DNA from: Escherichia coli
GTDB lineage: Bacteria; Pseudomonadota; Gammaproteobacteria; Enterobacterales; Enterobacteriaceae
Assembly (NCBI RefSeq): GCF_024298765.1
Contig: NZ_CP101210.1
Length of the DNA stretch: 64,000 nt
Strand: one strand, 5' to 3'
Shown here: piece after piece, positions 59,493 to 59,528 of the stretch
How positions within the stretch are numbered: the stretch's first letter is position 1
Layout: every line of letters begins with the position of its first letter
Notes under the pieces: generated by a model
Databases searched by the model: none
Told to the model about the DNA's origin: nothing
What the model saw: the letters and a program-made list of their open reading frames with translations, nothing else
Position numbers and translations under genes: made by a program

Positions 59493-59528
59493 AGCGAAGC
59501 CGCATCTGACAGTCAGAATGCGGCTTCG
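59493..59528. terminator. Perfect 12-bp stem hairpin just 3' of mnmE (candidate terminator or REP-like palindrome)
   Basis: gcgaagccgcat / atgcggcttcgc around a palindromic loop ctgacagtcag, 10 bp after the mnmE stop; no clean U-tract. Confidence 0.35.

Follow-up and report, generated by a model that had tools for sequence, protein, structure and literature searches.

A single-copy hairpin following mnmE in Escherichia coli as a probable 3′-end element of the mnmE transcript

A stable RNA hairpin directly 3′ of the Escherichia coli gene mnmE is very probably a 3′-end element of the mnmE transcript, if the intrinsic and the Rho-protective kinds of such element are taken together. The narrower reading that we prefer is held with less assurance: from sequence comparison, the hairpin probably forms the transcript 3′ end as a weakened intrinsic terminator, as a Rho-backed stem-loop that blocks exonucleases, or as both. 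In either case the hairpin belongs to a known and ordinary kind found at gene ends; it is neither new nor a repeated element. We describe it in a window of E. coli DNA (contig NZ_CP101210.1), by which we mean the whole stretch of 64,000 nucleotides that was analysed; all positions are those of the window unless another record is named (Table 1).

The genes mnmE, tnaC, tnaA and yidC all lie on the minus strand of the window. Among them mnmE comes last in the co-directional rpmH-rnpA-yidD-yidC-mnmE cluster, and it is the only gene that ends near the hairpin. In an annotated E. coli record a 261-nt stretch around the hairpin is 100% identical to the window; none of the RefSeq records examined annotates the hairpin itself.

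The hairpin is a perfect inverted repeat whose arms, GCGAAGCCGCAT / ATGCGGCTTCGC as written on the window, are complementary at 12 of 12 positions and separated by 12 nt. An earlier sequence-only reading of this DNA had recognised the perfect 12-bp stem but gave its coordinates as 59493-59528, one base off from the actual 59494-59529. It had also rightly placed the stem after the mnmE stop codon, but at a distance of 10 bp, where the gap is 8 nt (59530-59537, with TAA at 59538-59540). The palindromic loop that it described is borne out by RNAfold, which adds an inner stem of 4 bp (CUGA/UCAG), leaves one U bulged and puts 3 nt in the apical loop. This brings the total stem to 15-16 pairs with a bulge, an unusual length. 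Its placement of the hairpin upstream of the tna promoter holds as well, since the CRP-type palindrome, the −35/−10 elements and tnaC all lie downstream of the hairpin. The palindrome, TGTGATTCGATTCACA, we take to be a CRP site from the TGTGA-N6-TCACA consensus and the published tna promoter.

Table 1. Features around the hairpin, with positions on the window, in ascending order
Feature	Position	Strand	Basis
tnaA	57586-59016	-	
tnaC	59222-59296	-	
Promoter-like -35/-10, tna	59361-59332	-	Sequence scan
CRP-type palindrome, tna promoter	59372-59387	-	Sequence; kept in both alleles and E. albertii
147-nt segment (hairpin, tail, AT-rich region) behaving as one allele	59390-59536	.	Genome comparison
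G-poor, C-rich unstructured stretch AGCACUCCUGUUAUUCCUCAACCCUUUUUU, candidate Rho-loading region	59455-59484	-	Composition, alignment
Degenerate U-tract UUCAUUGUU	59485-59493	-	Sequence, E. albertii alignment, discriminant
3′ arm of mnmE-sense RNA hairpin, AUGCGGCUUCGC	59494-59505	-	Inverted-repeat search, comparison
Loop region UCUGACUGUCAG with inner stem CUGA/UCAG	59506-59517	-	RNAfold, alignment
5′ arm of mnmE-sense RNA hairpin, GCGAAGCCGCAU	59518-59529	-	Inverted-repeat search, comparison
Spacer CCGCGCUU, 8 nt, stop codon to stem	59530-59537	-	Sequence
Last 18 bp of mnmE, TTCTGTATTGGTAAGTAA, putative SGI1-type attB	59538-59555	-	Sequence and PMC2297512
mnmE (trmE/thdF), 454-aa ORF, stop TAA 59538-59540	59538-60902	-	ORF and annotated E. 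coli record
yidC	61008-62654	-	

As mnmE-sense RNA, 49 nt of the window sequence fold with −27.4 kcal/mol, against −10.7 ± 2.6 for shuffled versions (z −6.5), and none of 200 shuffles folds as stably. The hairpin had been called strong from its letters, and its stability is indeed far from negligible. Perfect 12-bp stems with loops of 3-20 nt were counted in dinucleotide shuffles of the window, which have 0.07 of them per shuffled window and at least one in only 5% of shuffles; four distinct ones are observed in the window. On the z of −6.5 together with this chance rate, the hairpin is not a chance match. In being a stable, GC-rich stem-loop on the sense strand just past a gene end, it has one hallmark of an intrinsic terminator.

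The three further hairpins with perfect 12-bp stems in the window lie at 15629-15667, 41373-41401 and 52347-52381; the last (AAAAACCCGCC...GGCGGGTTTTT) has the look of a bidirectional terminator, and that at 41373-41401 is an AT-rich palindrome. Two open reading frames run over the mnmE hairpin, one at 59433-59531 on the minus strand (32 aa, TTG start) and one at 59449-59730 on the plus strand (93 aa, antisense to mnmE); we set both aside as mechanical ORFs with no support.

The hairpin is present once per genome. Of 5426 complete E. coli genomes, 4651 have a match at a single place to a 52-nt query of the hairpin region, searched at E ≤ 10 with 11-nt words; just one genome has it at two places, and no plasmid has it. 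Within the window, no second copy was found at up to 3 mismatches. A search of Rfam 15 with both strands of 58900-59800 gave chance-level matches only (E ≥ 1.5), none of them reaching the gathering score or overlapping the hairpin. On these results we reject the suggestion in the sequence-only reading of a REP-like element. It is true that REP-type palindromes stand 3′ of mnmE in some Citrobacter, Pluralibacter and Pseudocitrobacter genomes (four loci) and that GCCGCATC is common to a hairpin arm and the REP consensus. That the hairpin might be some dispersed or mobile repeat, REP-like or otherwise, which chances to follow mnmE is nevertheless scarcely credible, given one place per genome in so many E. 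coli genomes, none on plasmids and no Rfam match.

Another hallmark of an intrinsic terminator, a U-rich tract directly 3′ of the stem with typically at least 6 U in about 8 nt, is not found at the hairpin. As the sequence-only reading had remarked, there is no clean T-run: the mnmE-sense tail in E. coli is (C)UUCAUUGUU, without an uninterrupted run of U, and U occupies 5 of 8 positions in the window (UUCAUUGU) and 4 of 8 in K-12-type strains (CUUCAUUG). A simple consensus terminator scan of the window does not call the hairpin, because its loop is longer than 8 nt and its extended stem is bulged. A d'Aubenton-Carafa-type discriminant, computed with modern energy parameters and to be taken as a rough guide only, gives +20 for Escherichia albertii, +6 for the ShET2/EspL2 island allele described below, −1.9 for the window hairpin and −25 for the K-12-type hairpin. 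By this discriminant the hairpin is at or below the threshold as an intrinsic terminator. A bidirectional terminator was also considered and rejected; the tail on the plus strand, AAGCGCGGUUAC, lacks a U-run, and there is no convergent gene ending at the hairpin.

The closest informative relative is E. albertii, which has the same layout of mnmE, hairpin, CRP-type palindrome and tnaC. The core stem is identical in the two species at 11 + 11 bases, and the spacer and loop have diverged; conservation in E. albertii extends to the outer stem but not to the palindrome within the loop. At the terminal position of the stem, E. albertii pairs A-U and the window G-C, against A·C in most E. coli. Where E. 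coli has UUCAUUGUU, the E. albertii stem is followed by UUUUUUGU. Judged by these letters, the E. albertii ortholog is a canonical intrinsic terminator, which gives the E. coli hairpin homology to such a terminator at the orthologous position, and the E. coli tail, read in the alignment, is a decayed U-tract.

A decayed tail might also mark a relic, a former terminator that has lost its function and that drift has yet to remove. Every E. coli sampled has an eroded U-tract, and 14% of E. coli genomes have lost the hairpin altogether, as such a relic would allow. But E. coli and E. albertii have kept the same bases at 22 stem positions despite divergence in the spacer and loop, and the genomes without the hairpin have gained another terminator at the same place; we therefore regard a non-functional relic as very improbable.

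A wider comparison covered the flank 3′ of mnmE in about 80 Gammaproteobacterial genomes. At 26 of the roughly 80 loci, the 130 nt past the mnmE stop include a hairpin whose next 8 nt hold 6 U or more, and other flanks have REP-like palindromes or hairpins without U-runs. By this survey a terminator right after mnmE is the common arrangement. Homology of the E. coli hairpin with the CCCGCAT...ATGCGGG hairpins of other genera is possible, not demonstrable, and some of these are carried by integrated islands. A recurring mnmE flank of the form ACUAACCCGCAU..loop..AUGCGGGUUUUU, 30-60 nt past the stop, was seen at seven loci; the genera that have it are Pseudescherichia, Pseudocitrobacter, Pluralibacter, Brenneria, Erwinia and Acerihabitans, and an integrase follows at least two of the copies. 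The conservation of this flank may come from island-borne attL flanks and not from vertical descent.

Within the species, two stem positions vary among seven sampled E. coli genomes. At its first base the 5′ arm has G in the window and in one other strain, and A in the rest, including K-12, leaving an 11-bp stem; the K-12 hairpin has an energy of −23.9 kcal/mol. The other variable position is a C-to-T change in the 5′ arm, present in three of the seven, that converts a C-G pair into U-G in the mnmE-sense RNA; read on the opposite strand, the same change makes an A·C mismatch. This pair-keeping polymorphism is a small hint that the mnmE-sense RNA may be the relevant molecule. Variation is too little for a covariation test to inform: 11 of the 16 pairs are invariant, and 322 of 500 shuffles reach the same level.

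Larger changes replace the hairpin as a block. In 767 of the 5426 complete E. coli genomes, the 147-nt segment of Table 1 is swapped for 2630 nt (positions 17371-20000 of locus L005) carrying a type III effector gene of the ShET2/EspL2 family, convergent on mnmE. One breakpoint coincides exactly with the mnmE stop codon; the other is 2 nt past the CRP palindrome of tna. On the mnmE-sense strand and directly after mnmE, the effector-gene allele has its own hairpin of 14-16 bp followed by UUGUUUUUU(U). In 2 of the 5426 genomes, mnmE is separated from the old hairpin by a retron island of ∼7 kb (about 410-7330 in NZ_CP169309.1; window equivalent 59529/59538), with a tyrosine integrase pseudogene, the RT and effector of a St85-family retron, toprim/RepA helicase genes and ash. 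The island gives mnmE a new flank that contains AACCCGCAUUAAC...GUUAAUGCGGGUUUUU and has a canonical terminator. An att-like repeat, ATACAGAAGCTGGA, abuts the old hairpin in the retron-island genome, and 19 nt (the spacer, the stop codon and the last codons) are absent at the junction. Both replacement alleles found in E. coli have their own hairpin and U-run directly after mnmE; that every rearrangement removing the hairpin brings in a terminator-type hairpin is consistent with a need to end transcription here.

Homologous integrases stand beside mnmE in one Pseudocitrobacter and one Acerihabitans genome. The documented attB of SGI1 consists of the final 18 bp of thdF (= mnmE/trmE), and S. 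Typhimurium has a retron downstream of thdF (PMC2297512); the retron island fits this known SGI1/retron hot spot. The hairpin (59494-59529) lies outside the 18-bp SGI1-type site (59538-59555).

These observations bear on whether the hairpin acts as DNA, either regulating the tna promoter as a protein-binding palindrome or cruciform, or serving as a recombination site for islands that enter at the mnmE 3′ end. The palindrome is symmetric, with a perfect 13-nt core (TCTGACAGTCAGA), it precedes the inferred tna start by ∼190 bp, the stem base is directly next to one island junction, and the adjoining 18 bp are the SGI1 attB. The opposite strand of the hairpin also folds equally stably, and the arguments against a DNA role are indirect. 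They are, however, several: the inner palindrome is unconserved in E. albertii where the outer stem is conserved, no tor-box-like (TorR) site was found near the hairpin within 3 mismatches of the consensus, and the G-U-preserving polymorphism favours a role as RNA. As an island attachment site in particular we rejected the hairpin, with an abutting junction in two genomes only and the documented attB outside it. A DNA-level element of either sort is, on this evidence, very improbable.

The RNA downstream of the stem is relevant to how the transcript might end. Rho-dependent E. coli transcripts have steady-state 3′ ends that carry a stable stem-loop with reduced U and with more C than G downstream (Dar and Sorek 2018, PMC6061677). 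The mnmE hairpin agrees with this description in its stable stem, the low U after the stem and the excess of C over G, with C/G between 2.8 and 4.3 in 78-nt windows starting past the stem. Rho could load on the G-poor, C-rich stretch of Table 1, to go by its composition. About 12 nt of this stretch (…CUGUUAUUCCUCAACCC…, 59462-59474, minus strand) are lacking in E. albertii. Between the hairpin and the CRP site of tna there is an AT-rich inverted repeat, CTTTTTTAAAGATTATAA / TTTTAATGTTTAAAAAAG (59414-59461), with 18-nt arms that are 89% complementary and a gap of 12 nt.

The hairpin could then be purely the protective stem-loop of a Rho-dependent terminator, releasing no polymerase itself: Rho would load on the downstream C-rich RNA and terminate in the AT-rich region, and exonucleases would trim the transcript back to the stem. 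The U-poor tail, the C/G ratio past the stem and the documentation of this class in E. coli (PMC6061677) argue for such a role. Yet the C-rich part extends for only about 25-30 nt before the RNA turns AU-rich, which is short for a rut site, the window tail still has 5 U in 8, and the ortholog in E. albertii is a canonical intrinsic terminator; a literature search for bicyclomycin data on the hairpin site found none. We consider a purely protective role unlikely, though one to be kept in mind.

We favour a mixed picture, with partial intrinsic termination, Rho as a back-up and the stem as an exonuclease barrier either way. Once polymerase has passed the mnmE stop, the GC-rich stem of 11-12 bp with its four further pairs would form 8 nt downstream. 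The hairpin would be the descendant of a canonical Rho-independent terminator that is still present in E. albertii, and with the U-tract decayed to (C)UUCAUUGUU in E. coli, intrinsic termination at it would probably be only partial. Polymerases that read through would likely be stopped by Rho, loading on the G-poor, C-rich RNA just downstream, and the stable stem would then block 3′-5′ exonucleases and set the mature 3′ end of mnmE. The net effect would be that mnmE transcription is over before the catabolite-controlled tna promoter. That the hairpin may insulate tna from mnmE read-through had been proposed in the sequence-only reading, and the proposal gains comparative support from the E. 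albertii U-tract, the replacement alleles and the C-G to U-G change. What is seen directly is the structure with its stability, its presence as a single copy and its conservation in E. coli and E. albertii; the termination, its efficiency and any part played by Rho we infer. The tna leader has a Rho-dependent attenuator of its own, so that read-through from mnmE would be filtered twice, which may explain why a decayed U-tract is tolerated.

A literature search found no mapped mnmE 3′ end and no named terminator. The supplementary lists of one E. coli Term-seq study (PMC7815308), as far as these thresholded lists go, have no entry for mnmE, which is weakly expressed, and no coordinate in 3,888,100-3,888,499, the range expected to contain the site. 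Counted from a tnaC-associated end that the lists place at 3,888,521, the mnmE end would be expected at about 3,888,226-3,888,236 in MG1655.

If the mixed picture is right, the mnmE transcription unit ends at the hairpin, which probably keeps upstream transcription away from the tna promoter; by itself this is of little importance. More tentatively, and in our view doubtfully, a canonical intrinsic terminator may have become, in the E. coli lineage, a protective hairpin poor in U whose termination depends on Rho, as the U-tract eroded and the C-rich ∼12 nt were gained. Such a conversion, if true, would be a natural and closely dated switch in the mode of termination, and read-through from mnmE into the tna leader might then be open to regulation. 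E. coli and E. albertii, with the same stem and a decayed versus an intact U-tract, make a clean pair for asking how much of a U-tract a strong hairpin needs. The adjoining site of island integration matters in that insertions there alter what terminates mnmE, and these surroundings, namely the effector-gene replacement and the SGI1 attachment site, are more interesting than the hairpin itself.

Among known systems, the hairpin resembles the Rho-independent terminators of Enterobacteria in being a GC-rich, sense-strand stem-loop a few nt past the stop codon, at the same place as terminators in many genera; it differs from them in an interrupted U-tract (4-5 U in 8) and a bulged stem of 15-16 pairs. 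With the stem-loops of Dar and Sorek (PMC6061677) it shares its stability, the lack of a U-rich tail and a downstream bias of C over G, but its tail is richer in U than random and its ancestry is that of an intrinsic terminator. Like REP/BIME elements, it is a 3′ intergenic palindrome able to stabilise upstream mRNA; unlike them it is single-copy, with neither a shared consensus nor clustering. The attB of the SGI1 family is its immediate neighbour, an 18-bp site ending 8 nt before the stem, and island insertions at the mnmE 3′ end separate the hairpin from the gene or replace it; the hairpin is nevertheless beyond the 18-bp core, and integration can be explained without it.
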